A DNA stretch of 62,000 nucleotides, taken from Chiloscyllium plagiosum (lineage: Eukaryota). The position numbers and the translations under genes are program-made. The stretch is from positions 7,122,133 to 7,184,132 of the forward strand of contig NC_057751.1 in assembly GCF_004010195.1 (NCBI RefSeq), read 5' to 3'. Shown here piece after piece: positions 31,895 to 60,440 of the stretch (position 1 is the first letter of the stretch; every line of letters starts with the position of its first letter). The notes beneath the pieces are model-generated. The model did not search any database. It was not told the origin of the DNA and worked only from the letters and a program-made list of their open reading frames with translations.

Positions 31895-32122
31895 TCAGCT
31901 CCAGTGGAACGGGAGCTGTCGCAGCCTCTCCCCGCCCTCCTTCACCAGTGGCTTGTGGTATTCACGACCAGCCTGGGAATGGATGCTCGTCCAGCAGTAG
32001 TCACAGTAGTACTGCAGGCATGTGATGTTGGCGCAGAAGAAAGGGGCAAACTTGCCGTTGCAGTGGGCGCCCTGGCATTCATCGCACAGCTGGTCCACCA
32101 AGACGTAGGGCTTCACCTCCAC
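31895..32122 (-). CDS. CPEB2/3/4-subfamily protein, last coding exon (ZZ zinc finger)
   Basis: ccag|GTG GAG, 228 nt. VEVKPYVLVDQLCDECQGAHCNGKFAPFFCANITCLQYYCDYCWTSIHSQAGREYHKPLVKEGGERLRQLPFHWS*. The Cys/His zinc ligands are intact. Confidence 0.96.
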   Translation of the reverse strand: MEVKPYVLVDQLCDECQGAHCNGKFAPFFCANITCLQYYCDYCWTSIHSQAGREYHKPLVKEGGERLRQLPFHWS

Positions 32123-32889
32123 CTGGCCAGTGACAGAAAGCAAAGACAGTCAGCAACATGTCTCCTTGCCCGTTCCCCCAACCTGACCGCCCCTTCGATC
32201 CAAAGACACCACCTCTGGTCATTATTGTTTTGAGAGGGGAAAACAAAAAGAATGGCGACAGGACGTGATGTCTCCAATTGCACTCTGGAAGGTCGTGCTG
32301 AGTTGCCTTCTGGAATGCAATAGAAGCCACCTCAGAGGGCAGTGAAGTGGGGGTCAACCTTATAAATGTGGGTCAGACAGGTTAAGGATGGGACACCCCT
32401 CCCCCGTCTCTTTCTGGGCAATGTTGAATTAGATGGGGTTATTTTGTTTCCTGACAACCTAGTTTATTTGGTCACCATTTCAATGCTTTGGTTCTTGCTT
32501 TCACTTGTGGGATGTGAATATCGCTGGCTTGCCCTGGAGAAGATGGTGGTGAATTCACACCCATAGTGCTGATGGCTAATATACTTCCAAGTTAGCATGG
32601 AGGGGGGAGTCGCGGGTGAGGATGTTCTCATGTATTTTCTGCCCTGTCCTTCCAGATGGAAATGATTGCGGGTTTGGAAGATGCTGTTTGAGCAGCCTTG
32701 ATGAAAAAGAATATCGGTAATGTTGACCATAAAATGAATCCGATTGTCCTAAAATGGTCACGAGATGGCGTTTTAACTTTCAATTCCAAATGTATTTAAT
32801 TTCAATTCGCAGCTGGTGTGGTGAGACTTAAAGTTTTGACTCATCACCCTCAATCAGGCCTCTGGATTAAGTTTCCAGGTTCAGTCACA

Positions 32890-33135
32890 TTCTGAGGTTT
32901 GAGTGTCTAAGATCAAGGCTGATCAACTTACGAGTGGGCAGGACTGAGAGAGAACTGCACTGTCAGAGATGCTGCCTTTCAGTGGAGACATTAAACTGAG
33001 GTCCTGTTGTCCTCATCAGGTGAACGTTAAACTTGGTACAGTACCATTTTGTAGAAAAGCAGTCGAGTTATCCCTGGTCTCCTCACCGATACCTATCCCT
33101 TAATCAACATTACAAAAATACTTTATCTTGTCATT
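32890..33135 (+). mobile_element. Deu-domain SINE (SacSINE1/AmnSINE1-related)
   Basis: ctgcactgtcagagatgctgcctttcagtggagacattaaactgaggtcctg..tcaggtgaacgttaaa..tatcccttaatcaacat matches the Deu central domain as I recall it. Confidence 0.7.
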
Positions 33136-33186
33136 GTTTATGATATGTCTGAATGTCACCAGCCTTTGATCTGACCACGACCAAGG

Positions 33187-33962
33187 TGAAATAACTCTAA
33201 GGAGTCAGGTATCGTGTCACGAAGCCACCCTTTTCTTTATATGTGGTTAGCCAGCACAGAGCCGGTCCCTAGAATCAGGAGACTCTTTGAATCCCTGTTT
33301 ATTTTATTTTATTTTATTTTATTTTCAGGATTTTAAATTTTGTTTATTAAATGAATACACCCACCTTAAGTTTCCTCACAAACTTGAATGGGAAACAGTC
33401 TTCTCAAATACAGCAAATTGATGAGACAACTCATATGAGAAAGTAAACTTCAGATAGTATACTCTACCTGATTATTTTTCTGACACGATCTTTAGCAGCT
33501 TTTAGTCTGAGAGAATTAACATTTTCCCATAAGATTCTAAAGGGAAAATCTGAGCCTAGCATATTAACTAGCCAGGTCACTTTGCCCTCCAGAAGTAAGA
33601 TAAGTTTGAAAGGCAAAGATGAATGTTTTCGCTTACACGTGCGAAATCAATAAGTTCCCAACCAGTAACCACTTGAATGATTTTACCACTACCTTTTTTT
33701 AAAAATACATTTGGTCAAACAGTATCACCCAATTCAATGAAAAACATCTCACTGCACCTTATTCACATCTTCAAGACGAGCTTTTATTTTAGGAAGTCCT
33801 AACTATACACCAATATTCTTTTCTCGCAAATTCAAATGCATGTTTTGAATTCTTGTTTATAGCTATCAGCCAGGGCTCCCTGATAGGACCAGGGTTAATA
33901 ATCCCAATGAGTGAACTCAGTCAGTCAATGAGATCCACCTGGCCTTGGATCCAATCACTACA
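33187..33962 (-). mobile_element. Solo LTR (same family as 6994-7229), split by a ~540-bp insertion
   Basis: On the - strand TGTAGTGATTG...GTTATTTCA. Exact TSD CAAGG at 33182-33186 and 33963-33967. Confidence 0.85.
33301..33843 (-). mobile_element. Retroposed polyadenylated fragment of unknown source
   Basis: On the - strand: AATAAA (33348-33343), 17 nt, then an (AAAAT)5 tail. Flanking direct repeats 33286-33302 and 33844-33860 match at 15 of 17 positions. Confidence 0.75.
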
Positions 33963-34614
33963 CAAGGCCCACGCACTAAGTGCATGTCTGACCCTGTGTA
34001 ATGATCTAGTCTTTGAACCCCAGATAGCACAGGGCTGTTCCAACAGCAATCCATGAATTTTCTGTGCATGGATAATTTGCGTGACTGCTCTCCTTGAACC
34101 AGTAAAGAGGTGAAGTCATTGTGTACGCCAGACTCTCCACAAAATGAGCAAGAGTACAGCCGGAAATCATCAGAGCGTGAAGATTTTGCCACATAAATTA
34201 CTGAATCAGATGGAACTGAACATGGTCAGTATGTGTTGCTGTGCACAAATAACTTGGTTTCTACTGGGAAAATACTTCCCCCACAAATCAGTTTCCTTTC
34301 CACTGTTGTCCTTCTGATTTGAGCACATGACTGTACTCCAACACAAACGAGGAGTGCACCGGTTCCTGTGACCAGTCAAAGATTAATACCTCAAGACACA
34401 AGAATGTGCAGTTCTGGTCTCCCTCTTATCAGGAGGATGTTGTGAAACTTGGAAGGGTTCAGGAAAGATTTACAAGGATGTTGCCAAGGTTGGACAGGTT
34501 AAACTATAGGGAGAGGCTTAATAGACTGGGGCTGTTATCTCTGGAGCGTCAGAGGCTGAGGGGTGACCTTATAGAGATTTATAAAATCATGGATAGGATA
34601 AATAGACAAGGTCT

Positions 34615-35162
34615 AGATTAGAGTGGTGCTGGAAAAGCACAGCAGGTCAGGTGAAGCAGGAAAATCGACGTTTCCGGCAAAGGCCCTTCATCAGGAATAG
34701 AGGCAGGGAGCCTGCAGAGTGGAGAGATAAATGAGAGAAGGGTGGGGAGAAAGTAGCATAGAGTACAATGGGTGAATGGGGTTGGGGATGGAGGTGATAG
34801 GGTGGAGTGGATAGGTGGAAAGGAAGATAGGCAGGTAGGACAGGTCATGAGGGCAGTGCTGAGCTGGAAGGTTGGAGCTGGGATGAGGTGAGGGAAGGGG
34901 AAATGAGGAAACTGGTGAAATCCACATTGATGCAATAGTGTTGAAGTGTTCCGAGGCGCAAGATGAGGCGTTCTTCCTCCAGCCGCTGGGTGGTGAGGGA
35001 GCAGCGGTGGAGGAGGCCCAGGACCTGCGTGTCCTCGGCTGAGTGGAGGGGGAGTTGAAATGTTGGGCCACAGGGTGGTGGAGTTGATTGGTGTGGGTGT
35101 CCCGGAGATGTTCCCGAAAGCGCTCTGCTAGGAGATGTCCAGTCTCCCCAGTGCAGAGGAGA
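34615..35162 (-). mobile_element. Penelope-like element 3' fragment: GIY-YIG endonuclease remnant plus terminal repeat (family A)
   Basis: LLCTGETGHLLAERFREHLRD...PVAQHFNSPS is the decayed YIGET..RFxEH motif of the PLE GIY-YIG domain. It is followed by a pyrimidine-rich tract and the hammerhead-bearing end. Confidence 0.88.
34661..34698 (-). ncRNA. Minimal type I hammerhead ribozyme motif (PLE-type)
   Basis: attc-CTGATGA-A-GGGCCTTTGCCG-GAAA-C-GTC-gatt. Core intact, the closing pair of helix II is mutated, short helix I (ATTC/GATT). Confidence 0.6.
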
Positions 35163-36705
35163 CTTCCCTGCGTTGGGGGGAGCCCAAAACTAGAGGACAT
35201 AGGCATAGGGTGCAAGAGGAGAGATTTGCAAGGAACTTAAGGGACAACTTTTTCACACAAGAGGGTGGTCAGTGTATGGAATGAGCTGCGAGAGGAAGTG
35301 GTGGAGACTGGTACAATTACAACATTTTAAAGGCATCTGGATGGGTATATGATAAGGAAGGGTTTAGAGGGATACAGGCCAAATGCTGACAAATGGAACG
35401 AGATTAGGTTAGGATATGGATCAAAGGGTTGGTCTATGTGCTATACATCACCAGAACTCTCTTAATTCCTCAAAATATAGGAACATAAACAGAGGCTTTT
35501 CTACAAGTACCCACCAGAGGGCAGCCTGTACCAGCAAAAAACTCCCAAACGTTTGTGCTAATTTTGACTGACAATTCTTTCGCATAACTAGTTCCTTACA
35601 GCACCATATCTAGAGTCTCAAAATTTCAGGGTGCTTCAATATTGAGTTTCAGTGAATTGTAAGCAAAGAGCAGCCATCATCATCACAGTCACAGCCCACC
35701 ATTAAGCAAAAAAATCCCTAATTTTGATCAACGCTCTTTTGAAAAATGAGGCCTGAGGGATTTACATCTCCCATTTGCCAAATTCACACACACTGTCTTT
35801 ACCAAACACTGTAACCTGTGGATCAGCATCTTGACAAAAGTGCAAGTCACCACAGAAGTGCCTGCACTCTCTGCTGCCCTCTCATGGCAGCCTGCAGTGG
35901 ACCTGGCCAGAGAATCTCAACCCTTTCAGCTCTGAGGACTCAAGGAGTTGGTCACAGAACCAGGCTGATGGCGAGCGGAGAGCAAGGGCAAAATGAGAGA
36001 CAGAGGATTCAGGACTCCATACGGTTCAGTTTTTAAGCTATGATGTAATTTACAAGTTTAACAACAGCTGCAACTTGACTGACATTTCCTACCTCACCCG
36101 CCCAAAAAAAAAACAAATCGTTTGTTTGGCAAATTGACCGATTTGCGAACGATCATAGAATCTCGCAGGACTTGAAGGAGGTCAATCAACACATCACATC
36201 TGTGTCAGCTCTTTGGAAGAGACATCCAGTTAATCTCAGTCACACTGTCTTCGTGCACAATCCTGCCCTTTCTGACTTCTTCAAGTTTAAATCCTGTCCA
36301 CTTTTGAACCAAGTAATTTCCACTTGCTCAGGCCGTGCACTCAGCCAGTGCCTTCCAGATCGTTATTCAGCAAAGGATTTTAAAAGAAACGCAGTCAAGC
36401 TACTGAGCCTACATTCAAGAAGCTAAGTCATAATTGGCTCAGATCACATACAGAGTCTGGATTTGTCAGGCTGCAGATAGGATATCCAATCTTACCATCC
36501 CCCTGTATACAGCTAAGTTCAATAAAGCCTGCTGCTGTTCTCCCACCTAAATGTGGATCTTACCTTACTACTTTCACACTTCTTTATCTGTCACGATATT
36601 CTCAGTTGCTCACCACCTATATTTTCAATGGGGCTTTTGTCACTGTTGGTTTCTGCCTTGACTGAATTAAAAATGTACTAATTTAGTACCTCTGCCATAG
36701 CCTTT

Positions 36706-37075
36706 GCAACACAGTAGCTCAGTGGTTAGCTCTGCTGCCTCAGGGACCCACCTTCAATTCCACCCTCTGGCGACTGTCTGTGTGGAATTTGCAAATGCTC
36801 CCCATGTCTGCATGGGTTTCCTCTGGGTGCTCCAGATTCCTCCCGCAGTCAAAAGATGCGCAGGTTAGGTGGACTGGCCACGCTAAATTTCCCCATAATG
36901 TCCAGGGTTGTGCAGGCTAGGTAGTTTGCCCATTGGAAATGCAGGGCTTCAGGGATGGGGTGGGGGAGGGCGGAGGTGGTGTCTGGATGGGATGGTCTTT
37001 GGAGGGTCACTATGGACTTGTTGGGCCAAATGGCCTGCTTCCACACTGCAGGGATTCAATTAATTTATGATTCTA
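36706..37075 (+). mobile_element. HE1/V-SINE-type SINE
   Basis: gtagctcagtggttagctctgctgcctcagggaccca..ttcaattcc head, central domain and gattcta tail. Confidence 0.85.
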
Positions 37076-37269
37076 CTTGAACAGAAAAATCCTCATTGCC
37101 CCATCTGGACTTTTTGTCAATTGCATTAAACGTGCAGTCTGTGGTCAGTGACTCACCACTTGGGTGGAACCTGTTCCCCTAACCCTCTTTCCCCATTATT
37201 TTCTCTCTCAGAATCTATGCCATTCAATTGGGTTCCCACCTATCCTCAGGTAGGCATAATTGATCCAGT

Positions 37270-40025
37270 ATTCAAAACTGTAACAGAGGGATTCCATTCC
37301 ATAAGATTCAATATTAAGTTGATAAAGGATAAAAATCAGTCAAGGATTCAGACCCCAGATTGGAAAAGGGCAGATTTTAGGGGTCTGAAGGTTGAACAGT
37401 AGCAGGTTGATTGTAAACGCATTTTGGGAGATAATACAGTGGATGGAAAATGGGAGATTTCCAAAAGAGAGATGAACTGGATGTAAGCTTGGTACATACC
37501 CATGGGAAATAAATAAAGGACATCCATAGCTAGCAAAGGAAGAAAAGAAGAGGTTGGAATACTGGAAAAATAACACCAAAAGTAGTCAAGAGGTGTATCT
37601 CAAATCCTGGCTAGAAGCTCAGGTTAAAGTAAGGCAGCTAATCAGAGTACAGGGTTTGGGAAGTCATGTTGATGTTGTATAGGACATTGGTGAGGCCTCT
37701 TCTGGAATACCGTGTCCAATTCTGGTTACCAAATTATAGTAAGGATATTATGAAGCTGGATAGAGTTCAGAAGAGATCAGGATTTTGTTGGGTATGGAAT
37801 GGCTGGAAAGGCGGGGACTTTTTTCACTGGGAGCTGAGGAGGTTGAGAGGTGACCCTATATAAGAGGTTTATGAAATCATGAGGGTTATGGACAGGGTTA
37901 TAATGGTAGGTGACATTTTACTAGGATTAGGAATTTCAAGACTAGGTGTATATTTTTAAGGTGAGAGGAGAGAGATTTTAAAAAAGACATGGGCACTTTT
38001 TTTCTAATAAAAACTGGTTCGCGTGTGCAATGAACTTCCAGAGGAAGTATTGCATATGGGTACAGTTACAACATTTAAACGACATTTGGATAAGTACATG
38101 AATAGGAAATGTTTGGAGCGATATGGGCCAAGAGCAGGCAGGTGGGACTAATTAAGTTTGGGATTACTGTTGGCATGGACTGGTTGGTCTGTTTCCATGC
38201 TCTATAACTCCATGAGCAAAGGATAGTAGGCTACTCTAGAACAGATTGTGAAATGTTCTTCAAACATATTGATAGCATAAGATTAGTGAAGGAAAGAGTG
38301 CGGCCCAAAAGGAACAAGCAAGGTGAGCTGCTCACTGAAGCAAAGGCTGTGGTAGAGGTACTTAATTAGTACAGTTCTAATTTAGTCAAGACAGAAGCCA
38401 TCAGTGACACTGGCCAGTTGAAAATGTGAGAGGTGAACAACTGAGAAATGTAGTGACAGATAAAGACCAAGTGCTCAAATGGCTGGCAGCACTCCAAGTG
38501 GAGAAGTCACTGGGCTCAAATCGGATGCATTCCAAATCACCGAGAGGGTAAGGTAGCAAATGAAGGAGCTGTTGGCAGAAATTTTCCAGGCCTCCCTGAA
38601 CACAGGATTAGTCCCAAAGACTGGAGGATTACAAATGTGATGCAGTTGTTTAAAAAAGGGACAAAGGATAAGTGCAGACCTATCAGCTTGACACCAACAG
38701 CGGGCAAATGGATGGAGGCCATAACACAGGATATAGAATTACAGCAAAATCAGTTAAGACTAGATAGTTAACATGGCTTTGTCAAGGGCAGGTCTTGTCT
38801 CATAAATGTAATTGAGTTCTTTGAAGAGGTGACGCAGGCAGTAGATTTGAGGGTACTGCTGTGGATACACATTTGGACTTCAGAAAGCGTTTGATACAAT
38901 GCTCCATGGCAGGATGGTTGGAAAATTAGACATGTCTGGGATTGCTGGGTCTTTGACAGCATGGATTCACAGCTGACTCAACCGTAAGAAACAGAGGGTT
39001 GGCAGAGATGGCATTTCTCAGACTGGGACGGGTTCAAAGTTGTGTTCACCAGAGATCGGTTTTGGGACCCTGACTTTTTCTGCTCTGCACGAACAATTTG
39101 GAGCTGGGTCTTGCAAGCAAAATCTCATGTCTTAAATTTGCAGGTGATTACTAACCTCGGGAGAGCAGTCAATTATGAGAATGATAGTGAGCAACTTCAG
39201 AGGGACATCGACAGGTTGATCAAATGAATGGACATCTGACAGATTAATTTCCATGTAGAAAAATGTGAAGTTATGCATTTTGGTAGAAGGAACATGGAGA
39301 AATGATACAGTCTCAATGATACAACTTAGAATAAACCAGAGTGACCTCAGGATTCAAGTCCATAATTCTTGGAAGGTGGCCAGGCAAGTTGAAATAGTTG
39401 TTATGAAGGCTTACACGATCCTTGTATTTATAAATTTGAGGAATAGCGTATAACAAGGAAGCAATGCTACACTTTTACAAATTATTGGGGAGATCATATT
39501 TGCAGGATTGTTCTGGGCACTTCATTGAAGGAAGGGTTTCAAAGCCCTGAAGAGACTGCAAATGAAATTTACTACAATGATACAAGGAACGAAGGATCTT
39601 AAATAAAAGGAAACATTAGAGAAATTGGGCTTATTCTTCTTGGAGCAGAGAAGATTAAGAGGTGATCTTAATGAGGTGTTCAAAATTATTAACAGGGGAA
39701 ATAAGGATATTTTGTTTCCACTAGTTGCTATGTCATTAAGTACAGTTTACAAACTGAAGACTGTCAGCAAGGAAGCTAGGAACAAGATGAGGAGAAACAT
39801 CTTTACTCAGAGGTGTTAGGATTTGGAACAGACTGCCTGTGAGTGTGGTGGAGTTGGATTATATCAGAGGTTTGTGAAGAGAGCTGGATATATCTTTGAA
39901 AGTGATGAATTGAGGGGGCTATGGAGATATGGCTGAACAACACGACAAAGCTGGGTAACTCTTTCAAGAGCTGGCACAAACGTAACGAGTTGAATGGCCT
40001 CCCTCTGCACTGTAAAATTCTTTGA
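37270..40025 (+). mobile_element. Old, decayed CR1-type LINE ORF2 with a younger CR1 3' end nested at ~37648-38215
   Basis: DWKRADFRGL and RT motifs (catggctttgtcaagggcaggtcttgtctcataaat; GLFFLEQRRLRGDLNEVFKII). The nested copy has YRTLVRPLLEYRVQFW and its own tail. Confidence 0.8.
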
Positions 40026-40315
40026 TTCTGTGGTGTCCTGGGTCAAGATTTACTCAACAAACAAAACAAAAGGAAAAATGGACAAGTGGTCATAATAACA
40101 TGGCTATTTGTGGGAGCTTGCTGTGCACAGATTGGCTGCTGCCATTCCTACATTATGACATGGAACAAACTCCACGAGAACCTCGTTAAGACATTCTGAA
40201 AAGGTGCAGTGTCGAGGCAAGCTTCCTTCATGCTTTCGAACGCCTACGTTTTAAATTGTCCATTTGCTTTCTCTGTTCTAACCACGCCAAGACTGGTTGC
40301 ACAAATAGGACTTAC

Positions 40316-40497
40316 CCGTTTGTCGATGTCCCGATGCTGTAGCTGGATGAAGCGAGCACTGATCGCCGCAATGTAGCTCTGTTGATTGGCAAATGCCACC
40401 CTGCCTGCTCCTTTTGGGTATTTCAGCTCAGGGTCGGTGTCGATGCCAGCATAGCAAACTCCTCCATACAGTTGGTCCATTATCATGGCCAGCTCCA
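40316..40497 (-). CDS. CPEB2/3/4-subfamily protein, RRM2 exon
   Basis: tgcag|TG GAG ... AAA CGG|gtaagt, 182 nt. VELAMIMDQLYGGVCYAGIDTDPELKYPKGAGRVAFANQQSYIAAISARFIQLQHRDIDKR. Confidence 0.97.
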
Positions 40498-44316: not shown

Positions 44317-44323
<7 letters not shown>

Positions 44324-44402: not shown

Positions 44403-44517
44403 CAGCCTTTAGGGGTCTTGGTACACCTCCCACAAAGACAGTTTTCCTGGGATCTAGAGGCTGCGAGCCATCCAGCACAAAGTCACTATCACTCAGACTC
44501 CAGGGTCTGATCTGTAC
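44403..44517 (-). CDS. CPEB2/3/4-subfamily protein, RRM1-RRM2 linker exon
   Basis: ttcag|GTA CAG ... GCT G|gtaagt, 115 nt. VQIRPWSLSDSDFVLDGSQPLDPRKTVFVGGVPRPLKA. Not in the ORF track. Confidence 0.96.
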
Positions 44518-47699: not shown

Positions 47700-47818
47700 C
47701 GGCTTGTCCTTGACTGTGCGGCTAGAGACGCACAAATAGAGTTTACCATCATCCTGAAAGCAGGCATCAATCAGAACCTGAACCGAACACTCCTCCTGAA
47801 ACAACAGGAAGGCGTAAC
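47700..47818 (-). CDS. CPEB2/3/4-subfamily protein, RRM1 exon containing RNP1
   Basis: tgcag|GT TAC ... AAG CCG|gtgagc, 119 nt. GYAFLLFQEECSVQVLIDACFQDDGKLYLCVSSRTVKDKP. Confidence 0.96.
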
Positions 47819-48875: not shown

Positions 48876-49639
48876 AACCCACATCCCCAAACATTATCCC
48901 AGGGTTCTGATTACTAGCCCAGTGACATTTCCACTGAGCCACCACCTCCCTTTGTAACAAAAAAAGATCAAAGATGAGGGTTTGAGTATGAACAAGTTCT
49001 ATTTATACAGAGCTTTTTAAATTCAAACAACATGGAGGGGCACGTCATTGGAGTTATTTATAACAAAATCTTATCCTGAGTCATTGGAGATATTTAGCCA
49101 GATGACCAAAACCTTGCTGAAGAAATAGATTTTTAGAAGACTCTTAAAAGCACAGAAGAGACACAGGAGAGGTTTTGCACGGAAACCCGAGAGCTCAGAA
49201 TGTTTTTAGCTGAAGGCATGACCACCAACTGAGCAGCGATCAAATTTCAAATGCTGAAGAGGCAATAATTGGGAGCACAGAGATCTCTGGGAAGTTCTAG
49301 TGCTGGAGAAGTTAACTGAGATGTGAAGGAGTGAACCCATGGGGAGATTTGAAAATAAAGACGCTTACTTTTAAAATAGAGCAAGGAATTACTTCAACAG
49401 AAGGCAATGCAGTCAGCCAGCACAGGTACGATAGGGGAAGGAGACTTATTCAAAGTTTGGAAAAGGGCAGTATTTTGGATAAGCCTCACCTTATTGCAGA
49501 GTTTTGTACCTAATGTAGTGTTGGAGTGCAGACAGGATATTTACTGGAATAGAAAGTCAGGAGGTCACAATTGCATTGATGAGAGTTTCAGCAGGAGTTA
49601 AGAGGAGGAAAGGTCAGGTGATGTTACCAAGCTAGAATA

Positions 49640-51905
49640 TGGTGATTCAGTAATAGTGCTAATGTATGCTTGTAAACTTGGCTCAGGGTAAAACAGGAGT
49701 ACCCCATGAATGGCAGGACACTAAGAAGCTCAGAGGAACAGAAGGAGCTAGTGGTGTTTGTCCACAAATCCCAAAAGGTGATTAATAAATTAATAAGGCA
49801 GGTATGAAATCCAATTGCATTTATCTGTTGTGGCACAGATTACAATAGCTGGGAGATTATGTTGGAGTTGGACCGAACTTTCATATGACCGCTGCTGGAG
49901 TACTGTGGTCACCGCACTGTCTGATAGATGTCATATGGAGGGGGCGCAGAGGAGTTACCTCAGCATGTTGCTTGGCTTGCAGCATTTTGGCTATCAAGAG
50001 AGACCAGATAAGCTTAGGTTACAGAGTCTTACAGACGTACAGCACAGAAACAGACCCTTCGGTCCAACTCATCCATGCCAACCAGATATCCTAAATTAAT
50101 CTAGTCCCATTTGCCAGCATTTAGCCCATATCCCTCTAAACCTTTCCTACTCATGGACCTATCCAGATTCCTTTTAAATGTCTTAACTGTACCAGCCTCC
50201 AACACTTCCTCTGTCAGCTCATTCCATACACGCACCACCCTCTTCATGAAAATGTTGCCCCTTCTGTCCCTCTTAAATTTTTCCCCTTTCACCTGAAATC
50301 TATACCCTCTAGTTCTGGACTCTCCCACTTCAGGGAAAAGGTTTTGTCTATTTACCCTATCTTTGCCCCTCATGATTTTATAAACCTCTGTAAGGTCACC
50401 CCACAGGCTTCGTTGCTCCAGGGAAAACAGGGTTCTTTTCAGCAGAGAAGATTGAGCGAGGACTGAGAGAGGTGTAGAAAGTTGAGGAGGAAATGGATGC
50501 ATGGAATCAAGTGCGAGCTGGCAAATTAGATACACAATTGGCTTGATGGTAGAAAGCAGAGGGTAATAGTGGAATGATGCTTGTTGGACTGGAAGCCTGT
50601 GACTAGAGGAGTACCTCAGGGTCGGTGCTGGGCCCATTGCTGTTTGTTATCAATATCAATAATTTGGATGAGAATGTACAAGACAGGATTACTAAGTTTG
50701 TTTATGACACTAAAATAGGCAGTATTTTGGACAGTGAGGAGGGTTCGCAGAAATTGCAGCAGGACCTTGATCAGCTGGGGAAGTGGGCTGAGAAATGACA
50801 AATGAAGGGTAATAAGTGTGAGGTCTTGCATTTTGGAAAGTCAAACCAAGGTCAACTTTCATGGTGAATAGTAGGGCCTTAAGGAGTGCAGTGGAACAGA
50901 GGGATCTTGGAATTCAGGCTCACAGTTTTCTGAAAGTGGAGTTACAGGTAGACAGTACAGTGAAGGCAGCTTTTGGCACACTGGCCTACATCAGTCAGGG
51001 CACTGAGTATAGAAGTTGGGAAGTTACGTTGCAGTTGTACAGGACGTTGGTGAGATTGCACTTGAGAGTATTGTGTGCAGTTTTGGTCACCTTGCTATAG
51101 GAAGGGTGTTAATAAACTGGAAAAATTTATAAGGATGTTGCCTGGACTCAATGGTCTGAGTTTTCAGGAGAGGTTGGACAAGCTAGGACTTCTTGCTTTC
51201 GAGCACAGGAAACTGAAGGGGGTCCTTACCAAGGTGTATAAGACCATGAGAGGCATGGATAGGGTGAATGCACTCAGTATTTTTCCCAGGGTTAGGGAAT
51301 CGAGGACTTGAGGGCATCAGTTAAAGGTTAGTGGGGAAAGAACAAAAGGAACCTGCGGGGCAACTTTTTTTTTTAACATGGAGAGTGGTATGCATATGCT
51401 GGTGGAATTGGTTGAGGTGAGTACATTAACAACATTTAAAAGGCATTTGGACACATACATGGATAGGAAAGGATTAGAAGGATATGGGTCAACTGTAGGG
51501 AAAAGGGGTTAGTGTGGATAGACGTTTTGGTCAGCCTCAACCAGTTTGGGCCAAAGGGCCTACCTCTATGCTATAGGACTTTGTGACTCTATGGATAGGA
51601 TAGATAGAAACCTGCTGTTCCCCTTAGTCAAAGCGTCAATACCAAGGGGCCATAATTTTAAGGTCAAAGGCAAGATCTGAGGATAAGATCTTTCACCCAG
51701 AGCTGGATGGGAGTCTGGAATGCACTGCCTGTGTGGATAGGTTGAGGGGGAGTTATCTCGCAACCTTTAAAAAGCACTTGGACGAGAACATCAAATGTCA
51801 TAACATTCAAAGCTATGGACCTACCACTGGAAAGTGGGACCTTGTAGACTTGGTGATATAGACTTGATGGGCCGAAGGGCCTCTTCAGTACCGTCCCATT
51901 CAATG
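49640..51905. mobile_element. Nested cluster of CR1-type LINE fragments: + ~49640-50015, - ~50020-50430, + ~50490-51592, + ~51590-51905
   Basis: RT and C-terminal peptides in ORFs 50101-50637(-), 50861-51100(+) and 51075-51311(+). GVPQG..LGPLLF motif at ~50608-50645. Confidence 0.85.
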
Positions 51906-52684
51906 ACTTCAATGGGTTGTGAAGAGTCTGGTAGAACAGTGGACAGGGTTCATGACTGTTACAAAGGGAAGTGCCTTTCATTTTCGTAATACTGAGTTGG
52001 AGTAAATTTCCATTTATTCAGGACAAGATGACAGACAAGCAGCATGACAAATCTAAGACTAAGGAGAAGTCAGGACAAGTGGCAGGTAAAGTACATTTGG
52101 GATCTGGCATGTGATTTCATGACAGAGCAACATGTAGATTAACAGACAGGAGACAGAAAGATAGATCCTTGGGAAACATCAGAAATACAAGTCGGAAGGG
52201 AAGCCATTGCAACTGAGAGTCTATCTATCTAAAATTAGACGGGTCAGAAAGGAGAAATAAAGATGTTTGGAGATGCCAGGTATTCAGCAGTCCAGAGAGA
52301 AATTGCTACCTTTTGTGGGGAATTCAGAATCGGAGACATGACCTTTCAACAATAGCCTGACCCTTCAACAGTCAAACTGTGAAGCAATTTCCTCTTTACA
52401 AAAAAAGTCTTGCAAGCTGTGACGAGTTGAAGACCAAATGAAATATTCAAGACAGACATAGGTCAGGCATTTGTTGGATGAAGGGGATCAAGGGAGTTGA
52501 ACTCAGCCGAGCAAACAATGTTGAGGTGCTCATCAGCCATTGTCGAACTCAATTGCACGGCAGACCTCAGACCCACAATGGCTGCTATGAAGACACATAT
52601 GAGCAAGAGTGAACCGGAGCTGACTTGTGTGCAATCCTGTCCAAGGTGTTCAGGCCAGTGCGACTTTCCAACACACGTACATTA

Positions 52685-53005
52685 TAGAGTCACACAGCAC
52701 GGAAACAGAGCCATCAGTCCAACTCGTCCATGCCGACCAAGCTTCCCAAACTCAACTTGTCCAATTTGCCTGCATTCCCGTATCCTTCCAAACCTTTCCT
52801 ATTCGTGTATCTGTCCAATAGTCTTTTAAATACTGTATCTGCATCAACCACTTCCTCTGGTAGTTCATTCCACATACGAACCACCCCGTGTGGGAAACAT
52901 TTGCCCCTCTGGTCCCTTTTATATCTTTCTCCTCTCAATTTAAAAGTATGCCCCCACGTTTTCAACGAGGGAAATTCTAGGGAAAACTCTATTCACCCTA
53001 TCTAT
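52685..53005 (-). mobile_element. CR1-type LINE 3' end
   Basis: GHTFKLRGERYKRDQRG..VVRMWNELPEEVV plus the family tail. Confidence 0.85.
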
Positions 53006-53173
53006 GCCCAACCGATTCAGCAGTGGCTAGAAAAAGATCCCATCAACGCGTTCTCTAGTCTTCAGGTCTCAGTCTCCATGTTCACCAAGTTAGCAGTGTG
53101 GTACACTCAAATTCTTTAAAAGGACACTTTGCCAATCATGCTAACACCAATTTCATGAAATAGAACTGCTCAC

Positions 53174-53263
53174 CTTTGGGTGGAAAATAGGATTTACTTC
53201 CAGACTTGTGAGGCCAGTCTACCATGAGCTGTCCAAAACAGCAGAAAGTAGCAATTATCTCAT
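53174..53263 (-). CDS. CPEB2/3/4-subfamily protein, RRM1 exon
   Basis: tttag|AT GAG ... AAA G|gtgagc, 90 nt. DEIIATFCCFGQLMVDWPHKSGSKSYFPPK. Not in the ORF track; phases match both neighbouring exons. Confidence 0.95.
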
Positions 53264-54924
53264 CTAAACAAAATAAATATTGAAACAATCAGAAAATCAA
53301 ACATATTTAACTCTAATTTCCATTACTCAAATGAACACACAGGGTTCTGACTTAGACAACTAACAGCTGATGAAATTTGGAACACTTCACCATATAGCAA
53401 TTGATGCCAAGACAGTATTAATGTTCAAGTCTCAAACTGACCTAAGTCAGTTCAGCAAGGGTTATGAAGAGGATGTGGGACAACAGCAAATATTTGGAGT
53501 TTGGTCGCAGATCAGCCATGAGTTTAGTGAATTGTCAAAAGAGACTGAAGGGCTAAATGCCTCCACTACACCTATGCCACTATTATATCACAAAGGAATC
53601 ACCAGACATCAATATGCATCCTGTGTGGGCTTCCTGGTAATAAGTTTAAGGGCATACAAGTTTAATTTTAATCATGCATATTATGGTCCGCTGTAGCAGA
53701 CAGCATTCAGCCAAAGGTACCTTCTGAAATGGCACCTCCACTCAGAAAGCCACTTGCTCAGGTTTTCAACAGCTTGTGACGCATCACGAGTGTGATATGG
53801 TCTCCCAAGTATCACACTTGGAAACAGTCATGTGAAAAAGGAGCATGACGTCAACTCAGGACAATTTTCAATTCGCTCATCAGGTTAACTAAAACTATCA
53901 GTGACGCAAAAGAAAATGTTGCCGGGGGTAGAGCTCCCAAATGCCTCAAGAGTGGCCATCAGTTGGGAACAGTAGTGGGAAAGCAAGGTCTTAATGTTAC
54001 CAGTGGGGTGGACTGTTGTTGAGGACATCATGAGGACGGTGGATGACACTATCCTGAGTATTCTATCTCTTTGTTTCCAAGATGCAATTTTGTCCTGGTG
54101 CTGTCAGACATTGCAAGCTAAGTTGAAGTCCTGTGGGGTTTCTGAGCAGGAACGTGAAAAAAATCTTTCAGCAGTCCAACAGGCCAGAAGCTCTTTTTAA
54201 TGGTTGTGATTCTGCATGAGGTTCTGATGAATGGTGGAGTCGCACAGGGACCCATGTTGGGATAACGCTGCTAAAACATTTGAAAATAAAGCATTGGATT
54301 ACTATTGAGGATGAGGCAAGAAATGAAAATCACACACTGCTGCAGGAACTCAGCAGGACCAGCAGCATTTGTGGAGAGAGAAACGGAATTTACTTTGAGT
54401 GCAGAATCACAGTTCTTTGGAACTGCAGAGCAGAGCAAGTGTTCTGCCGTCAAAATATTAACAGTGATTGTCCCTCCACACATGCTGCTAGACCTGCTGA
54501 GTTCCAGAACTGCTGTTTTCATTTCATCTTCCAGCACCAGCAGTGTTTTACTTGTACACACATGAGACAAAGTTATCTATGAATGATGAAATACCACATT
54601 CCCCATATCCTAATGCTTGTTCAAGCTTCAGTTAGAGAACTTGGTGTGCATTTACTTCCCCTTGCATGGTGGGTGATGGAGAAGGTACTGTAATACTGTC
54701 CAGCTTTCATGTCGTTGTGACCAACATGGACTACTACAAAGTGTGTTGACATAAGAGTAGCTTTACTAAAATGTACTAAGCACTTCGGTTCACAGAGAGT
54801 GGGCCACCTGTGGAACATGTGATGATGCTGCTCCTTTAAGACATTGAGCTTGCCCTTGGTTTTTCTTTTCCCCCCCCAGAGTGGTTGTAAATGCATAGAT
54901 TCTGAAATATCCGAGTTTATCCAA

Positions 54925-57900
54925 TTAGAGCCATGGAGATGTACAGTATGAAAACGATTCAACTCATCCATGCCGACAAGATATCCTAACCCAATCGAGT
55001 CCCATTTTTCCAGCATTTGACCCATATCCCTCTAAACCCTTCCTATTCATATATACCCATCCAGATACCTTTTCAACATTGTCTTTGTACCAGCCCCAGC
55101 CACTTCCTCTGGCAGATCATTCCACACATGCATCCTCTGCATGAAAAATTTGCCCCTTAGATGCCTTTTAAACCTTACCCACTCACCCTCAAACCTCTAG
55201 TTCTGGACTCCCCCACCCCAGGGAAAAGACTTTGTCTATTTATCCTATCCATGCTCATGATTTTATAAACCTCTAAAAGGTCACCCCACAGCCTGTGATG
55301 CTCCAGGGAAAACAGGGAAAACAGCCCCAACCTATTCAGCCTTTCCCTGTATCTCAAAGTCTCCAACCCTGGCAACATCTTCCAACTCTTTCAAGTTTCA
55401 CAACATCCTTCCGATAGGAAGGAGACCATAATTGCACGCAATATTCCAAAAGTGGCCTAACCAATGTCCTGTACAGCTGCAACATGACCTTCCAACTCTT
55501 ATACTCAATGCTTTGGCCAATAAAAGAAAGTACACTGAACGCCTTCTTCACTATCCTATCTACCTGCTACTTCACTTCCAAGGAACTATGAACCAAGGTC
55601 TCCTTGTTCAGCAATACTCCCCAGGACCTTACCATCAAGTCTTGCTCTGATTTGCCTTTCCAAAATGCAGCACCTCACATTTACCTAAGTAAACTCCTCA
55701 GGCCATTGGCCCATCTGGTCAAGATCCTGTTGTAATCTGAGGTAACGTTCTTCGTTGTCCAATACACCTCCAATTTTGGTGTCATCTGCAAACTTACTAA
55801 CCAGACCTCCATGTTCACATGCAAATCATTTATACAAATGACGAAAAGTAGTGGACCGAGCACACCACTGGTCATAGGCCTCCAGTCTGAAAAGCAACCC
55901 TCCACCACCATCACTACCATCTGTCTTCTACCTTCAAGCCAGTTGTACATCCAACTGGCAAGTTCTCCCTGTATTCCAGGAGACCTAATCTTGCTAACCA
56001 GCCTACTGTGAAGAAACTTGTCAAACTACTTTCTCAAGTCCATATAGATTATGTCCACTGCTCTACCCTCAGTAATCCCCTTTGTTACTTCTTCAACAAA
56101 CTCAATCAAGTTCATAAGACTTGATTTCCCAAATACAAGGCCATGCTGATTACCCCTAATCAGTCCTTGCCTTTCCAAATACATGTAACCCCTGTCCCTC
56201 AGGATTGCCTGCAACAACCCTTCCACCACCAATGTCAGGCTCACCAGTCTTTAGTTCCCTGGCTTTTCTTTACCACCTTTCTTAAATAAGGTTGGCAACA
56301 CATTAGCCAACCTGTAGTCTTCCAGCACCTCACCCATGACTCTTGATGGTACAAATATCTCAGCAATCACTTCCCTAGCTTCCCACAGAGTTCAAAGGAT
56401 CCACCTGATCAGATCCTGGGGATTTATCCACTTTTATGCATTTTAAGACATCCAGCATCATCTCCTTTATAATACAGATATTTTTCAGGATGTCACCATC
56501 TATTTCTCCACATTCTGTATCTTCCATGTCCTTCTCCACAGTAAACACCGATGCAAAATACTCATTCAGTATCTCCCCCATCTCCTGTGGCTCCACACAA
56601 AGGCCACCTTGCTGATCTTTGAGGGACCCTATTCTCTCCCTAGTTACCCTTTTGTCCTTAATGTATTTGTAAAAACCCTTTGGATTCTCCTTAATCCTAT
56701 TTGCCAAAGCTATCTCATGTCCTCTTTCTGCCCTCCTGATTTCCCTCTTCAGTACACTCCTACTGGCTTTTGCTCTGCTAAGGATTCACTTGCTCTCTTG
56801 CTGTCAATACCTGATATATGCTTCCTTCTTTTCCTTAACCAAAACCTCAATTTCTCTACTCATCCAGCATTTCCTAAACTTACCAGCGTTCCCTTTCACC
56901 CTATCAGGCCTATATTTTCTCTCGTTATTTCATTTCTGAAGGCTTCCATTTTCCAGCTGCCCCTTTACCTGCGAACATCTGCCCCCAGTCAGCTTTTGAA
57001 AGTTCTTGCCTAATACTGTCAAAATTGGCCTTCCCCCATTTTAGAACTTCAACTTTTAGATCTGGTCTATTCTTTTCCATCACTATTTTACAACTAATAG
57101 AATTATGGTCGCTGGCCCCGAAGTGCTCCCCCACTGACACCTCGGTCATCTGCCCTGTCTTATTTCCCAGGAGTAGGTCGGGTTTTGCACCTTCCCTAGT
57201 ATGTATATCCACACAATGAAACAGGAAATTGTCTTGTGGACACAACAAATTCCTCTCCGTCTAAACCCTCAACACTGCGACAGTCCCAGTCTATGTTTGA
57301 AATTTTACAATCTCCAACCATAACCACCCTATTATTCTTACAGATAACTGAGATCTCCTTATAAAATTGGTTCTCAATTTCTCTCCGACTCTTAGGGGGG
57401 TCGATAATACAATCCCAATAAGGTGATCATCCCTTTCTTCTTTTTCAGTTCCATCCAAATAACTTCCCTGGATGTATCCCAGAAATATCTTCCCTGAGTA
57501 CAGCAGAAATGCTATCCCTGATCAAAAATACCACTCCCCCTCCTCACCATATATCCTTCCTATAGCATTTATATTTTGGACATTAAGCTGCCAGTTCTGT
57601 CCATCACTGAGCCACGTTTCTGTAATTGCTGTGATACCCCAGTCCCATGTTACTAACCATGCCCGGAGTTCATCTGCCTTCCCTGTTAGGCCTCGCATTG
57701 AAATAAAGGCAGTTTAATTTCATTTATCAGTCCTACCTTGATCTCTGCTTTCCTCCTGCCTGCTTTGACTGTTTGACTCGCTCGCTTTCCCAACTGTACC
57801 AGTCCCAGATTGATCTCTTTCCTCACTATGTCTCTGGTCCCACCCACCCCCCCCCCCCCCCCCCACCCAAAACGTACTTGTTTAAACCCTCCTAAGCAGC

Positions 57901-58012
57901 TCTAGCAAATCTCCCTGCCAGTACATAAGTCCCCTTCAAATTCAGATGTAATCGGTCCTTCTTATGCAGGTCACTCCCATTCCAGAAGAGATTCCAATGA
58001 TCCAAACATGTG
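54925..58012 (-). mobile_element. Long decayed CR1/HER1-type LINE (end of ORF1, endonuclease, RT, 3' tail)
   Basis: Frameshifted peptides in order: PTREG..DLLLGN..SDHN (APE endonuclease), IKENPKGFYKYIK, NQHG....KS.L.NL, LGPLLFVICINDL, YRTLVRPLLEYCVQLW. ORF1 esterase remnant at ~57900-58010. Confidence 0.93.
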
Positions 58013-60272
58013 TCCTGTTCTCTTTTGTTTGTGTTTCATTCTGTAAATAAATTCTGTTTCGTTTAAAACAGAGGGGTTTTGACCAGCTGCATCACTCCTC
58101 GAATATCCACTCTACACCTGCTGAAAACAACTAGAGAAGTTAGGGTCTGGGCTACCTTCTTGAAATGTTTTGAGGGGGTCTGACCTGGTCCATAATAAAT
58201 AACAGGCAAGAGGAGAAAGGGCAAATGCTCTTTTCTCTCTCTCAATCAGTCAGATGCATCACTGCACACGTCCACTTGAGAACCAGGAATTTCTGAACTT
58301 TGGATTCACGGTCAAGCTGTCCCTCTCCAGCTCCAACAAGGCAACTAGATATACACATTCAAGTGTAACCTTGCATGCTCCATCATCCTATGAACTGCCC
58401 AAGGCAGAGCACATAATGGGCTTTATTTTTAACCAAATCAGGCGTTGGTTCAGCAAAGCCCTGTACTGAAAGAGCAGCTTTGCCACTGCTGGGAAGCTCT
58501 GCCATGATGGAAACACAGCTGCAAGTGGGATGGATTTATGTTAAATATTTTACATCTGGGGTTACCCAAAATTTAAGAACCTTCATATTGTCAGTGGACA
58601 GCAAGGATTCCTATGCGTTCCACGGCACTCCATCGCTGACAAGTCCAGGATTTCGCTGTCAATCAGTTTTAAAAGCAGCTAAATGCACTGGTTTTGATTA
58701 CAGGCTCGGAAAACCATGTTTTTCCGCACAATTGTGACGTAAAAATTGACTCTCTCTTTTACAGTTGCTTGCAATATTGAACTGCTTGCTGAACAAAGTC
58801 TCTTCAAGTGGTCAGATATCGCCAACGGTGAGTAAATTCCTTTCGGGAGCACTGCACAAATAAGATATGGATGCAATCCAATTTGGCAAGTGTTTGGTAA
58901 TATATTTTTGAGAAAATAAACATGTAATGGGAGTCGACACTCAATGGAGAGACGTGGCTGGTCAGAAAACTGAAGGACCACTGCAACAACGTGGCCATTG
59001 ACGAGAACTCCCATGACATATTAGGTTTTGCAGAGCAGAGAAAAGAATGTCATAATAATCATCAACAAATGTTCACCACCAATTCAAGCTGTGCCATTTT
59101 ACAAAGCTAGAAAGTATACATTTAGTGGGTCGGTGTCTGTGATGGGGAAACCAATCATGAGAACAAAAACTGTGGCTAAGAGGAAATTTTGTTTTTGAAA
59201 TTACGTTGAATTTTGAGAAGAGTATTTCACTTTAAAAATGATTGTTTCTTATGAAATTTGTTGACACAAGCAGAAACTATGTTGATGTTTCCTAGTGAAT
59301 TTTATAATGAGTTGAAGCAGAAAAGGATAGAGGATTGGACAAAGACAATAGAGTACTTTTAGATTGCTTCAGCAGGGGGGCGGATTCGCTCTCGTCAAGT
59401 TGTTCATTCAACACTCTGCATTGTGCTCATGACAGGAGGCATTCTGTTTTTTGAAGGACGTAACTTGCCTCTTAATTACTGAAGCAGTCATTTCACTGAT
59501 TGCCCTTGAAAAGGTATTGGTGGATCATCTTCTGGAGCTGCTCCATTGCAGTCCATGTGGTGTAGGTACATCCACTGTGCTGTTCAGGACAAAGTCCAGG
59601 ATTGTAACCAAGGGGCAGTGAATGCACAGTGATTTGGAGGCTATGCCAAATGCAGTTTGGTTTCCCCAAGTCCAGAGACACGTATGGTCCTGTCCAGCTA
59701 AGGAGGGCAGGATTCCTCTGCCAAAGGAAATTGACGAACCACTGGGATTGGGAGTTGCAAAAATCATCTGATCTCCAGGTTACATTTTATCGCAGATCTA
59801 TTTTATTAGCTGTACTTGAATTCATGAACGGCTCGAGAAGGCTTTGAATTTATGACAGAGTGTTATTTGTTCAGGCTGGGGGATTAGTGGTCCAGTCAGG
59901 AATCATGGTGCTCCCTTAACACCGTCATTTACAATGTCAGAGGTTGGACATCCTACCCTACACATTCCAACACATTCCCATTATCTGTATGAAGGAACAG
60001 TCAACTTCTGGAGACAGTGTTAGTGAGCTATTCTTTCAAATGTAGTAGTGATCAATACAGTGACATTTTGTACGTTTTCACATGGGTGATGCTCATCTCT
60101 TGAACTAGTAGCAGAGAAGAGTAAACAAGGAGAGCACAAAACTGATATTCAACAGATCAACAGTGAGCAGTTTCAGCCAGAGAAATATTTACACTTAATT
60201 TACTATCCTTCAGGACATACAAAGAAGGTCCAATCACAATAGGTTCCCTCACGCACAAGAATCTTAACTCAC

Positions 60273-60440
60273 CTTCATCAATATCAGGTGGCAAACCGCC
60301 AACAAAAACCTTTCGGGAATATCGCTCTCCTGATTTCCCATTCTGGCTGAGAGCCGGGGAGTTCAAGCCTGAAGATAAAGACTGATCACCCTGGCTGTTG
60401 TCAAGGAAGCCATCTTCAACAGGGAACAAAGCCGATCGAC
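60273..60440 (-). CDS. CPEB2/3/4-subfamily protein, exon entering RRM1 (upstream exons lie beyond the window)
   Basis: tgcag|GT CGA ... GAA G|gtgagt, 168 nt. GRSALFPVEDGFLDNSQGDQSLSSGLNSPALSQNGKSGERYSRKVFVGGLPPDIDE. Confidence 0.96.

Follow-up and report, generated by a model that had tools for sequence, protein, structure and literature searches.

A fifth CPEB gene beside UNC5D in sharks and rays, very likely a fourth ohnolog of the CPEB2/3/4 type

The presence of a CPEB2/3/4-type gene beside UNC5D in the bamboo shark Chiloscyllium plagiosum raises the question of whether it is a divergent form of a known paralog or a further member of the family. CPEB proteins are regulators of mRNA translation, and CPEB3 is linked to memory. 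Vertebrates are stated to have four CPEBs (PMC9465852, PMC11965684, PMC12415542). No fifth or shark-specific CPEB was found in the literature, with subscription journals largely outside that search and published ohnolog lists possibly already including the gene; the name 'CPEB5' occurred only in a myeloma paper, and the literature examined does not treat the shark gene as a separate paralog. The locus was found to be an intact eight-exon gene of sharks and rays, an additional member of a known family whose function is predicted here from sequence, and very likely the fourth CPEB2/3/4-type ohnolog.

Within the window, i.e. the whole stretch of 62,000 nucleotides that was analysed, six coding exons carry an AG acceptor each and a GT donor on the first five, and are spliced into a single open frame of 299 residues plus a stop (Table 1). 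An earlier note on this DNA had described the same six exons with GT-AG sites and one frame, which stands except for its length of 300 residues. Two coding exons lying just outside the window were absent from that gene model. The full gene has 8 coding exons with 1719 nt and encodes a protein of 572 amino acids identical to RefSeq XP_043537208.1 (P0001; Chiloscyllium plagiosum), named 'CPEB2-like', to whose C-terminus the in-window residues match at 299/299. The architecture is that of the CPEB family, in which two RRMs in tandem precede a ZZ domain containing six Cys and two His, and the Pfam models RRM_7, RRM_1 and CEBP_ZZ each score above cut-off. As the earlier note held for its motifs, all 8 zinc ligands, in 22/22 sequences of this paralog, are preserved, as are the aromatic residues of the RNP motifs. 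Intron positions agree with those of the three paralogs of the same genome, two CPEB3 exons falling outside the stretch compared, which has gaps. Pfam domains above cut-off and intron positions common to paralogs together argue that the six-exon gene is not a product of chance. Contigs assembled from three runs, presumed to be RNA, cease aligning at the exon 8 acceptor, and a raw single-cell run (about 2% sampled) gave a depth below 1 over the gene. For one related organism, the contig lists a single, synonymous change over 228 coding bases as against 13 over 595 UTR bases, numbers too small to test. The RNA-binding region is closer to CPEB4 (397 bits) than to CPEB1 (183) and about 85% identical to CPEB2/3/4, and it is virtually certain that this is a genuine gene of the CPEB2-4 subfamily.

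Table 1. Coordinates of the CPEB and UNC5D features (window positions unless a sequence is named)
Feature	Position	Strand	Remarks
CPEB coding exon 1	ATG at G000:C42:7203379		726 nt; beyond the right end of the window
CPEB coding exon 2	C42:7186462-7186372		91 nt; LENSL export motif; beyond the right end of the window
CPEB coding exon 3 of 8	60273..60440	-	168 nt; pre-RRM segment and RNP2 of RRM1
CPEB coding exon 4	53174..53263	-	90 nt; RRM1 helix 1 and loop; fixed changes T334, C336, C337, S349, G350
CPEB coding exon 5	47700..47818	-	119 nt; RNP1, helix 2, inserted strands of RRM1; D381 and V394, both altered RNA contacts
CPEB coding exon 6	44403..44517	-	115 nt; RRM1 end, linker, RRM2 start
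CPEB coding exon 7	40316..40497	-	182 nt; RRM2
CPEB coding exon 8	31895..32122	-	228 nt; RRM2 end, ZZ zinc domain, stop
CPEB partial 3' UTR	31300..31894	-	joined to exon 8 in assembled contigs; runs on below 31300
UNC5D penultimate coding exon	5098..5286	+	bounds approximate (tblastn)
UNC5D last coding exon	6271..6462	+	death domain, stop; tail-to-tail, ~25 kb from CPEB stop codon

The ZZ exon occurs at four places in the genome, namely on C42 (this gene), C22, C14 and C1. The C22 locus is CPEB3, since over 259 residues of the N-terminus it is 94% identical to a named CPEB3 of catshark, the C14 locus is CPEB4, its pre-RRM exon being 95% identical to that of a named Mustelus CPEB4, and the C1 locus groups inside the CPEB2 clade; hence separate CPEB2, CPEB3 and CPEB4 loci are all present alongside the fifth gene. 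Its paralog group comprises 27 sequences from 18 named shark and ray species. Among annotated proteins, no ortholog was found outside elasmobranchs (bony fishes, tetrapods), nor one in chimaera, though chimaera CPEB3, CPEB4 and UNC5D were found. RefSeq models such as XP_043537208.1, XP_041065669.1 and XP_055518229.1 correspond to the fifth CPEB and its orthologs, labelled by similarity only, so that shark entries called 'CPEB2-like' and 'CPEB3-like' are neither CPEB2 nor CPEB3. XP_043537208 and XP_041065669 are missing from the sequence table of a 571-species CPEB survey. The label 'Cpeb4-3' in the skate-paper supplement hints at extra CPEB copies auto-named there.

In the main tree (21 rows, 540 columns; like the other trees, with only one shark CPEB2 and without cyclostome or amphioxus sequences) four clades were resolved, of which the fifth CPEB forms its own. 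The CPEB3 sequences from sharks, from chimaera and from bony vertebrates unite at 97/95 to its exclusion, and an Ameiurus 'hypothetical protein' falls within this CPEB3 clade. All four nestings tested were rejected by AU (p 0.0001-0.028), namely a place within the CPEB2 clade next to shark CPEB2 (p 0.0001), a grouping with elasmobranch CPEB3 (p 0.00055), a place within the CPEB4 clade next to chondrichthyan CPEB4 (p 0.005) and a grouping with chondrichthyan CPEB3 (p 0.028), the last being the weakest test, with a long branch. Nesting within a known clade as the only such copy, the outcome that the earlier note had named as fatal to its reading, is thus contradicted by both the tests and the three other loci. 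Lying outside all three gnathostome-wide clades places the duplication before the shark/bony-fish split, with the weakest p value and the long stem as qualifications. The fifth CPEB in ray-finned fishes that the earlier note mentioned could be traced neither in the literature nor among annotated proteins, so tree and synteny, rather than a fish ortholog, are the basis for the age of the gene.

The neighbouring gene is UNC5D, as originally proposed, and not UNC5A, B or C; a protein-atlas search with an UNC5 exon gave no match above 0.9. Judged from equal contig sizes and locus tags, the linkage of UNC5D and the fifth CPEB recurs across species, with contigs of equal size in 6 other species and the consecutive locus tags scyTo_0002107/0002108. 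The UNC5/CPEB pairing that the earlier note described for human did not hold throughout, since only two of four pairs are found in this assembly (C14, C42), the other two UNC5 genes being on C38 and C32, apart from CPEB3 (C22) and CPEB2 (C1). A RING exon 23 kb upstream of the fifth CPEB has just one other close copy, which lies on C22 at a distance of 37 kb from CPEB3; the RING gene is head-to-head with CPEB3 but in tandem with the fifth CPEB, a difference that counts against the favoured origin. An exon of an actin-related gene, the second upstream neighbour, likewise has close copies on C42 and C22 only, the C22 copy lying 35 Mb from CPEB3. Stanniocalcin genes occur on C42, C14 and C1. In the supplement of PMC12019251, cpeb is present at three of four NK loci and none at the stc1 locus, and C42, which carries stanniocalcin, matches this sole published NK-cluster paralogon without a CPEB. 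The supplement of PMC10115646 pairs the segments as 1-alpha/1-beta, with March5-1 and March5-2 on them, and by the supplements of PMC12019251 and PMC10115646 CPEB2 and CPEB4 already fill the 2-alpha and 2-beta segments.

Three other loci, a separate clade and paralogon synteny support the proposal that this gene is the missing fourth ohnolog, and an origin by whole-genome duplication before the gnathostomes is highly probable. Its closest relative is probably CPEB3. Since the trees leave this sisterhood open, it rests on synteny: the best unrooted split pairs the fifth CPEB with CPEB3 at 71/58, while in both rooted trees it falls next to CPEB2+CPEB4, weakly supported (83; 64/72), and the symmetric rooted arrangement ((CPEB3, fifth CPEB),(CPEB2, CPEB4)) is not the best but is not rejected either, with an AU p of 0.27. 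The sisterhood suggested in the earlier note therefore gains from synteny, from a pre-RRM segment of 55 residues, which is the CPEB3 length (58 in CPEB2 of this shark and 57 in Mustelus CPEB4), and from shark CPEB3 being the best N-terminal match in 4/4 queries, but not from the trees. The gene would be the 1-beta copy from the second vertebrate genome doubling, with a burst of change on the stem (0.52 changes per site) that would have been followed by a near freeze, and in bony vertebrates it would have been lost or gone undetected.

Other origins have to be weighed against this one. That the gene is a pseudogene, a mis-assembly or the sole divergent CPEB2/3/4 ortholog of the genome, as its database names could imply, is refuted by the three other loci and by conservation across 18 species, and is opposed by the open frame, the canonical splice sites and the contigs that depart from the genome at the exon 8 acceptor; its probability is negligible. 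A segmental copy of CPEB3 confined to cartilaginous fishes, inserted together with the RING gene near UNC5D and fast-evolving thereafter, would agree with orthologs being found, among annotated proteins, in elasmobranchs only and with the shark CPEB3 matches of the N-terminus, and a long stem could drag such a gene out of the CPEB3 clade. Nevertheless, AU rejects both groupings with CPEB3 of these fishes, the gene occupies precisely the paralogon expected to hold a fourth copy, and the actin-related gene is also paired between C42 and C22 but on C22 lies too far from CPEB3 to have come along in a small segmental copy; this origin is very unlikely. An ohnolog whose sister is either CPEB2 or CPEB4, or a duplicate that predates and lies outside the three known paralogs, draws on the rooted trees and on a database N-terminal search in which tetrapod CPEB2 ranked above CPEB3; against these stand the 2-alpha and 2-beta segments already taken, the paired RING and actin-related neighbours that indicate C22, and the pre-RRM segment that agrees with CPEB3 in length and sequence, and this reading is likewise very unlikely. 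Pre-gnathostome ohnology, with CPEB3 as the likely sister, is retained.

One of the structural features of the fifth CPEB is the pattern of its substitutions. Of 240 columns with an invariance of 90% or more among 29 CPEB2/3/4 sequences, it deviates at 29, close to the 'roughly 30' first estimated, and 26 of these changes are fixed in all 22 shark and ray sequences compared. RRM1 and the ZZ domain also bind proteins, and 22/29 changes fall in these two, the excess outside RRM2 not being significant (p 0.06). At the same time, 20/22 RNA-contact or hinge residues are kept with two conservative changes, as are 13/13 alanine-scanned residues. Several changes equal invertebrate residues, e.g. D381 in 4/5 outgroups. 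The RNA-binding region of the bamboo shark is 97-99% identical to that of skate, electric ray and sevengill shark; shark CPEB2/3/4 are mutually 96-98% identical over this region, and shark CPEB3 and octopus 90.8%. The 26 fixed changes sparing RNA contacts would point to RRM1 and ZZ surfaces that serve partners rather than RNA, and the gene amounts to a set of natural mutants of a domain with 96-99% invariance between shark and ape.

The N-terminal domain differs in its regulatory sites. CPEB2-4 carry 12-20 proline-directed phosphorylation sites there (PMC9465852), and CPEB2, 3 and 4 have in common a 24-nt neuronal microexon (PMC11711090). As a sequence proxy in a domain that is also shorter and proline-poorer, Ser/Thr-Pro sites have a median of 4 in the fifth CPEB (range 2-6, 19 sequences; observed/expected 0.88), about one third of the 12 and 15 of shark CPEB3 and CPEB4 (observed/expected 1.5); being a regulatory trait, the low count marks a variant and does not exclude the gene from the CPEB2-4 subfamily. 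The microexon is absent in 26/26 models spanning its site (27 in total), and tblastn and a splice-site scan gave no trace of it in the 3,799-nt intron, though short exons can escape such searches. The LENSL export motif is present in 25/27 sequences. No Rfam match, and hence no CPEB3-type ribozyme, was found in the window and 50 kb upstream.

The fifth CPEB is predicted with good confidence to bind CPEs. Its targets would be U-rich CPE elements in mRNA 3' ends, whose translation would likely be repressed; going by homology, stacking of the U-run would fall to RRM1 and that of the final A to RRM2, in the manner of CPEB4, nuclear export would be driven by LENSL, and CCR4-NOT would be recruited as with CPEB1-4. 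Few Ser/Thr-Pro sites, the lack of the microexon and the concentration of changes in RRM1 and ZZ suggest that ERK/Cdk1-driven condensate release is likely weaker and the partner set likely altered; a phospho-switch weaker than in CPEB2-4, taken singly, has slightly less than an even chance. With RNA-gripping residues nearly all kept and few on/off switch sites, a repressor that is harder to release may be envisaged. The overall explanation, of an eight-exon fifth CPEB that is the likely sister of CPEB3 and a CPE-binding, likely repressor with a weaker release switch, appears likely. More tentatively, the protein may be a switch-poor CPEB that kept CPE occupancy, shed the ERK/Cdk1 array and the microexon, and had RRM1/ZZ re-surfaced, acting as a standing repressor or as a competitor of CPEB1-4 on the same mRNAs. 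If true, this would be a third regulatory mode in the CPEB family, retained since the shark/ray split. A redundant CPEB2-4 with narrower expression, whose changes are mostly neutral leftovers of relaxed selection, is a serious possibility, if short of an even one: RNA-contact residues and zinc ligands are kept, beta-segment genes are generally faster-evolving (PMC10115646), and some changes equal the invertebrate residues. It is opposed by the 26 changes held in 22/22 sequences at near-invariant positions and by the absence of the microexon and most Ser/Thr-Pro sites. Redundancy of this kind bears on function alone and does not conflict with an ohnolog origin. Lacking the microexon and most phospho-sites, this copy provides a test of how CPEB condensates switch.

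Among known systems, the best solved relative is CPEB4, whose tandem RRMs with RNA (PDB 2mki/2mkj; Afroz et al., PMC4083092; E 1e-117) have the listed contact and hinge residues identical at all but two, E131 to D and I144 to V in the numbering of the CPEB4 construct, which both concern the first two nucleotides, with the adjoining P142 changed to R. Shark CPEB3 (P0030/P0155; vertebrate CPEB3 RRM1 structures PDB 2dnl, 2rug) is 85.8% identical over the 260-residue RNA-binding region, and vertebrate CPEB3 shares RRM1-RRM2-ZZ, intron positions of the compared exons, pre-RRM segment length, LENSL and the paired RING-gene neighbour; in contrast, N-terminal identity to CPEB3 is about 32-36%, and the fifth CPEB lacks a stretch of 44-64 residues, the microexon among them, that in CPEB3 separates the export-motif exon from the pre-RRM exon. 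As a locus, it completes the CPEB2/3/4 quartet and fills the vacant slot of the published paralogon map. Ohnologs that cartilaginous fishes retain but bony fishes have lost, with 19 cases in PMC10115646 and nkx2.5l of the same paralogon (PMC12019251), follow the same pattern and, as an already known class, cap the surprise; compared with these, the fifth CPEB is distinguished by its position on a beta segment and by the number of fixed changes in a domain that elsewhere hardly varies.

The gene on the minus strand of the window belongs to the known CPEB family, with an unusual substitution pattern, and is a real gene additional to CPEB2, CPEB3 and CPEB4. The window occupies G000:C42:7122133-7184132 of the Chiloscyllium plagiosum genome, in which the ZZ exon has four matches, on C42, C22 (80%), C14 (79%) and C1 (76%). 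Identity to named shark proteins marks the C22 locus as CPEB3 and the C14 locus as CPEB4, and the C1 copy groups inside the CPEB2 clade, hence separate CPEB2, CPEB3 and CPEB4 loci exist besides C42. A weaker match on C40 has a CPEB1-type linker, labelled from the motif in PMC4083092 (excerpt). Two expected CPEB3 exons were not found in the 70 kb of C22 examined, which holds N runs at their places. The six window exons have AG/GT sites and the sizes given in the earlier note, and their spliced product is 299 residues plus a stop, not 300, identical (299/299) to the C-terminus of XP_043537208.1 ('CPEB2-like'). With two further coding exons outside the window, the eight exons (726/91/168/90/119/115/182/228 nt) translate exactly into this 572-residue protein, which matches Pfam RRM_7, RRM_1 and CEBP_ZZ and whose intron positions are common to its relatives in the same genome. 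Contigs of three sequencing runs (X1, X5 and X7, each from a different study and under a different organism label; RNA nature guessed) span the 3' UTR and last exon, with alignment ending at 32123, past which they carry 2,044, 1,510 and 1,547 letters, respectively, absent from the window; the coding length upstream of exon 8 is 1,491 bases, and the first bins of the last intron next to exon 8 have zero depth. Departure of contigs from the genome at the exon 8 acceptor, seen on the acceptor side in putative RNA runs, is consistent with spliced mRNA. The last intron also contains a short retroposed copy of the 3' end of an mRNA; differences common to the reads and contigs aligned there make its C4 parent their likely source.

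Coordinates of features in the window and elsewhere in the C. plagiosum genome (G000; L-handles, stretches outside the window)
Feature	Location	Strand	Observation
UNC5D death-domain exon	window 6271-6462	+	best named matches UNC5D
Retrocopy in last CPEB intron	window 33292-33847	-	AATAAA, then (AAAAT)n tail
Parent of retrocopy	G000:C4:60857171-60857678		96% identity to retrocopy
RRM1 helix 1	window 53174-53263		two adjacent arginines replaced by cysteines (22/22 sequences)
N runs inside CPEB3	G000:C22, L040:1359-3971 and L043:108-607		places of two expected exons
RING-CH gene exon	L050:2400-2600 (G000:C42:7226400-7226600)	-	85% identity to C22 copy
GC-rich stretch	L050:8000-9000 (G000:C42:7232000-7233000)		between divergently oriented RING and actin-related genes
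Third stanniocalcin gene	G000:C1:115.94-115.96 Mb		near CPEB2
UNC5B-like gene	L006 (C38:24.95 Mb)		not on CPEB3 chromosome
Another UNC5 gene	L007 (C32:36.09 Mb)		not on CPEB2 chromosome

Among 1,647 proteins from a ZZ-exon search, the best 120 comprise five elasmobranch-only clusters at 95-99%, followed by vertebrate CPEB2/3/4 at <=80%. Together the clusters contain 27 sequences, with 18 species named (10 sharks, 8 rays and skates), already in databases under automatic names ('2-like', '3-like' or hypothetical). A search with the N-terminal region gave 54 matches out of 3,434 candidates, its close relatives all lying in the same clusters, and among the best 150 of 2,512 representatives clustered at 50% identity the one addition was a fragment from whale shark. 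Diagnostic residues occur in 27/401 CPEB-like proteins, 24 of them with 23/23, the next best protein reaching 8/23. No chimaera or bony-vertebrate ortholog was found among the best-matching annotated proteins listed, where a slower-evolving copy could escape. Vertebrates are given four CPEBs in excerpts of PMC9465852, PMC11965684 and PMC12415542. No description of the paralog was found in the literature searched, and the ohnolog list supplementing PMC10115646 or the supplement of PMC11979771 may include it; the sole match to 'CPEB5' there is an unrelated paper. The ray-finned CPEB5 mentioned earlier found no confirmation.

Over 260 residues of the RNA-binding region, identity of the paralog to shark CPEB2/3/4 is 85-86%, against 96-98% among those three; shark CPEB3 is nearer to octopus (90.8%) than to the paralog. 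The roughly 30 changes at invariant positions counted earlier correspond to 29/240 near-invariant columns, 26 of them fixed in 22/22 sequences compared (22 chosen from the 27, partial and duplicate isoforms excluded). Together with 97-99% identity within the clade, this points to change in a burst that then stopped. By our domain bounds the changes fall in RRM1 (11), linker (2), RRM2 (5) and ZZ (11), with p 0.06 for RRM2 against the rest. The adjacent RRM1 cysteines could conceivably form a redox- or lipid-sensitive pair.

Descent from within CPEB2, CPEB3 or CPEB4 was weighed using trees. In a quick tree of 44 rows the paralog is a clade (support 100) with a stem of 0.51. A careful tree (21 of these rows, 540 columns; outgroups, partial, long-branch and redundant rows excluded) resolves the paralog (100/100), CPEB2 (100/99), CPEB4 (100/100) and CPEB3 (97/95), the last uniting chimaera, sharks and bony vertebrates without the paralog. 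Forced placement within chondrichthyan CPEB3 (AU p 0.028), elasmobranch CPEB3 (p 0.00055) or chondrichthyan CPEB4 (p 0.005), or with this shark's CPEB2 (p 0.0001), is rejected. On the proposed sisterhood to CPEB3 the trees differ: the best unrooted split sets (CPEB2, CPEB4) against (CPEB3, paralog) at 71/58, the best rooted tree (19 rows, two invertebrate outgroups) places the paralog beside CPEB2+CPEB4 (64/72), and CPEB3+paralog is not rejected there (AU p 0.27).

The neighbouring genes and published segments favour that sisterhood. A RING-CH exon lies 23 kb upstream of the start codon and an actin-related exon 35 kb upstream. Each has a single close second copy, and both of these copies are on C22: that of the RING-CH exon sits 37 kb from CPEB3, that of the actin-related exon (91%) 35 Mb from it. 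The C42 RING-CH gene, which we take to be a second MARCHF5-type gene, is a probable ohnolog of the C22 copy, their orientations relative to CPEB being unlike; the actin-related gene is presumably ACTR1A/B. The GC-rich stretch between them is possibly a shared promoter. The neighbour is UNC5D, as claimed: its exon has 113 matches, the best named ones being UNC5D from sharks, chimaera (71%), salamanders and fishes, and named UNC5D from four lineages each score highest on it among the genome's four UNC5 exons. UNC5D and the paralog are indirectly linked, on equal-sized contigs, in Stegostoma, Heterodontus, Mobula birostris, Scyliorhinus torazame, Leucoraja and Amblyraja; in S. torazame their locus tags are consecutive. 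The suggested UNC5/CPEB pairing holds on C42 and C14 and fails for the UNC5B-like exon on C38 (76 bits to solved UNC5B vs 65, 59 and 49) and for the UNC5 gene on C32, where chromosome fission or assembly split may be responsible; the labels UNC5A and UNC5C in this genome are our assumption.

A stanniocalcin gene occurs 2.4 Mb from the paralog on C42, another 0.8 Mb from CPEB4 on C14 and a third 1.3 Mb from CPEB2 on C1, with none found on C22; the C1 gene matches zebra shark chr1 'stcl' of PMC12019251 (excerpt). Excerpts of that paper trace the four NK4/NK3 loci to two genome doublings and list cpeb on three, with none on the stc1-nkx3.1 locus (zebra shark chr40/thorny skate chr39). In PMC10115646 (excerpt), the ancestral segment concerned gave 1-alpha (LER15+LER34; chicken 6), 1-beta (LER35; chicken 22), 2-alpha (LER1) and 2-beta (LER11), with March5-1 on 15C, March5-2 on 35C, Cpeb2 on 1C and a Cpeb4 on 11C; this assignment predicts a CPEB3 sister exactly on the small chromosome, and the split of 1-alpha would explain the UNC5B-like exon off C22. 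Given the three other loci, the separate clade, rejected nesting and paralogon synteny, the paralog is very probably the fourth ohnolog of the CPEB2/3/4 set, as the earlier note proposed.

Mapped on the CPEB4-RNA structure (PMC4083092, excerpt), 20/22 contact and hinge residues are identical and 13/13 alanine-scan residues are kept, while E131D and I144V contact the first two nucleotides; the zinc ligands are intact (8/8), as had been stated. As to function, the chief alternative is simple redundancy with CPEB2-4 under narrower expression. Excerpted sources report that CPEB3 RRM1 binds importin 5 and LENSL is its export signal (PMC3458550), and that the Orb2 ZZ domain binds co-repressors (10.1101/2025.08.22.671863); LENSL is present in 25/27 paralog sequences and LEDSL in one, the exon missing from one model. 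Multiple proline-directed phosphorylations act as the switch of CPEB2-4, and their number matters (PMC9465852, excerpt); the median of such sites is 4 in the paralog, without excess over shuffles, vs 12 in shark CPEB3 and 15 in shark CPEB4. The neuronal microexon common to CPEB2-4, which keeps condensates reversible (PMC11711090, excerpt), is present in shark CPEB3 and CPEB4 models and absent from the 26 of 27 paralog models that cover its site, with no trace in the intron. Most likely, the paralog would act as a CPE-binding translational repressor through CCR4-NOT, by homology to CPEB2-4, and, judging from its sequence, would be less readily released by ERK/Cdk1 and present altered partner surfaces.
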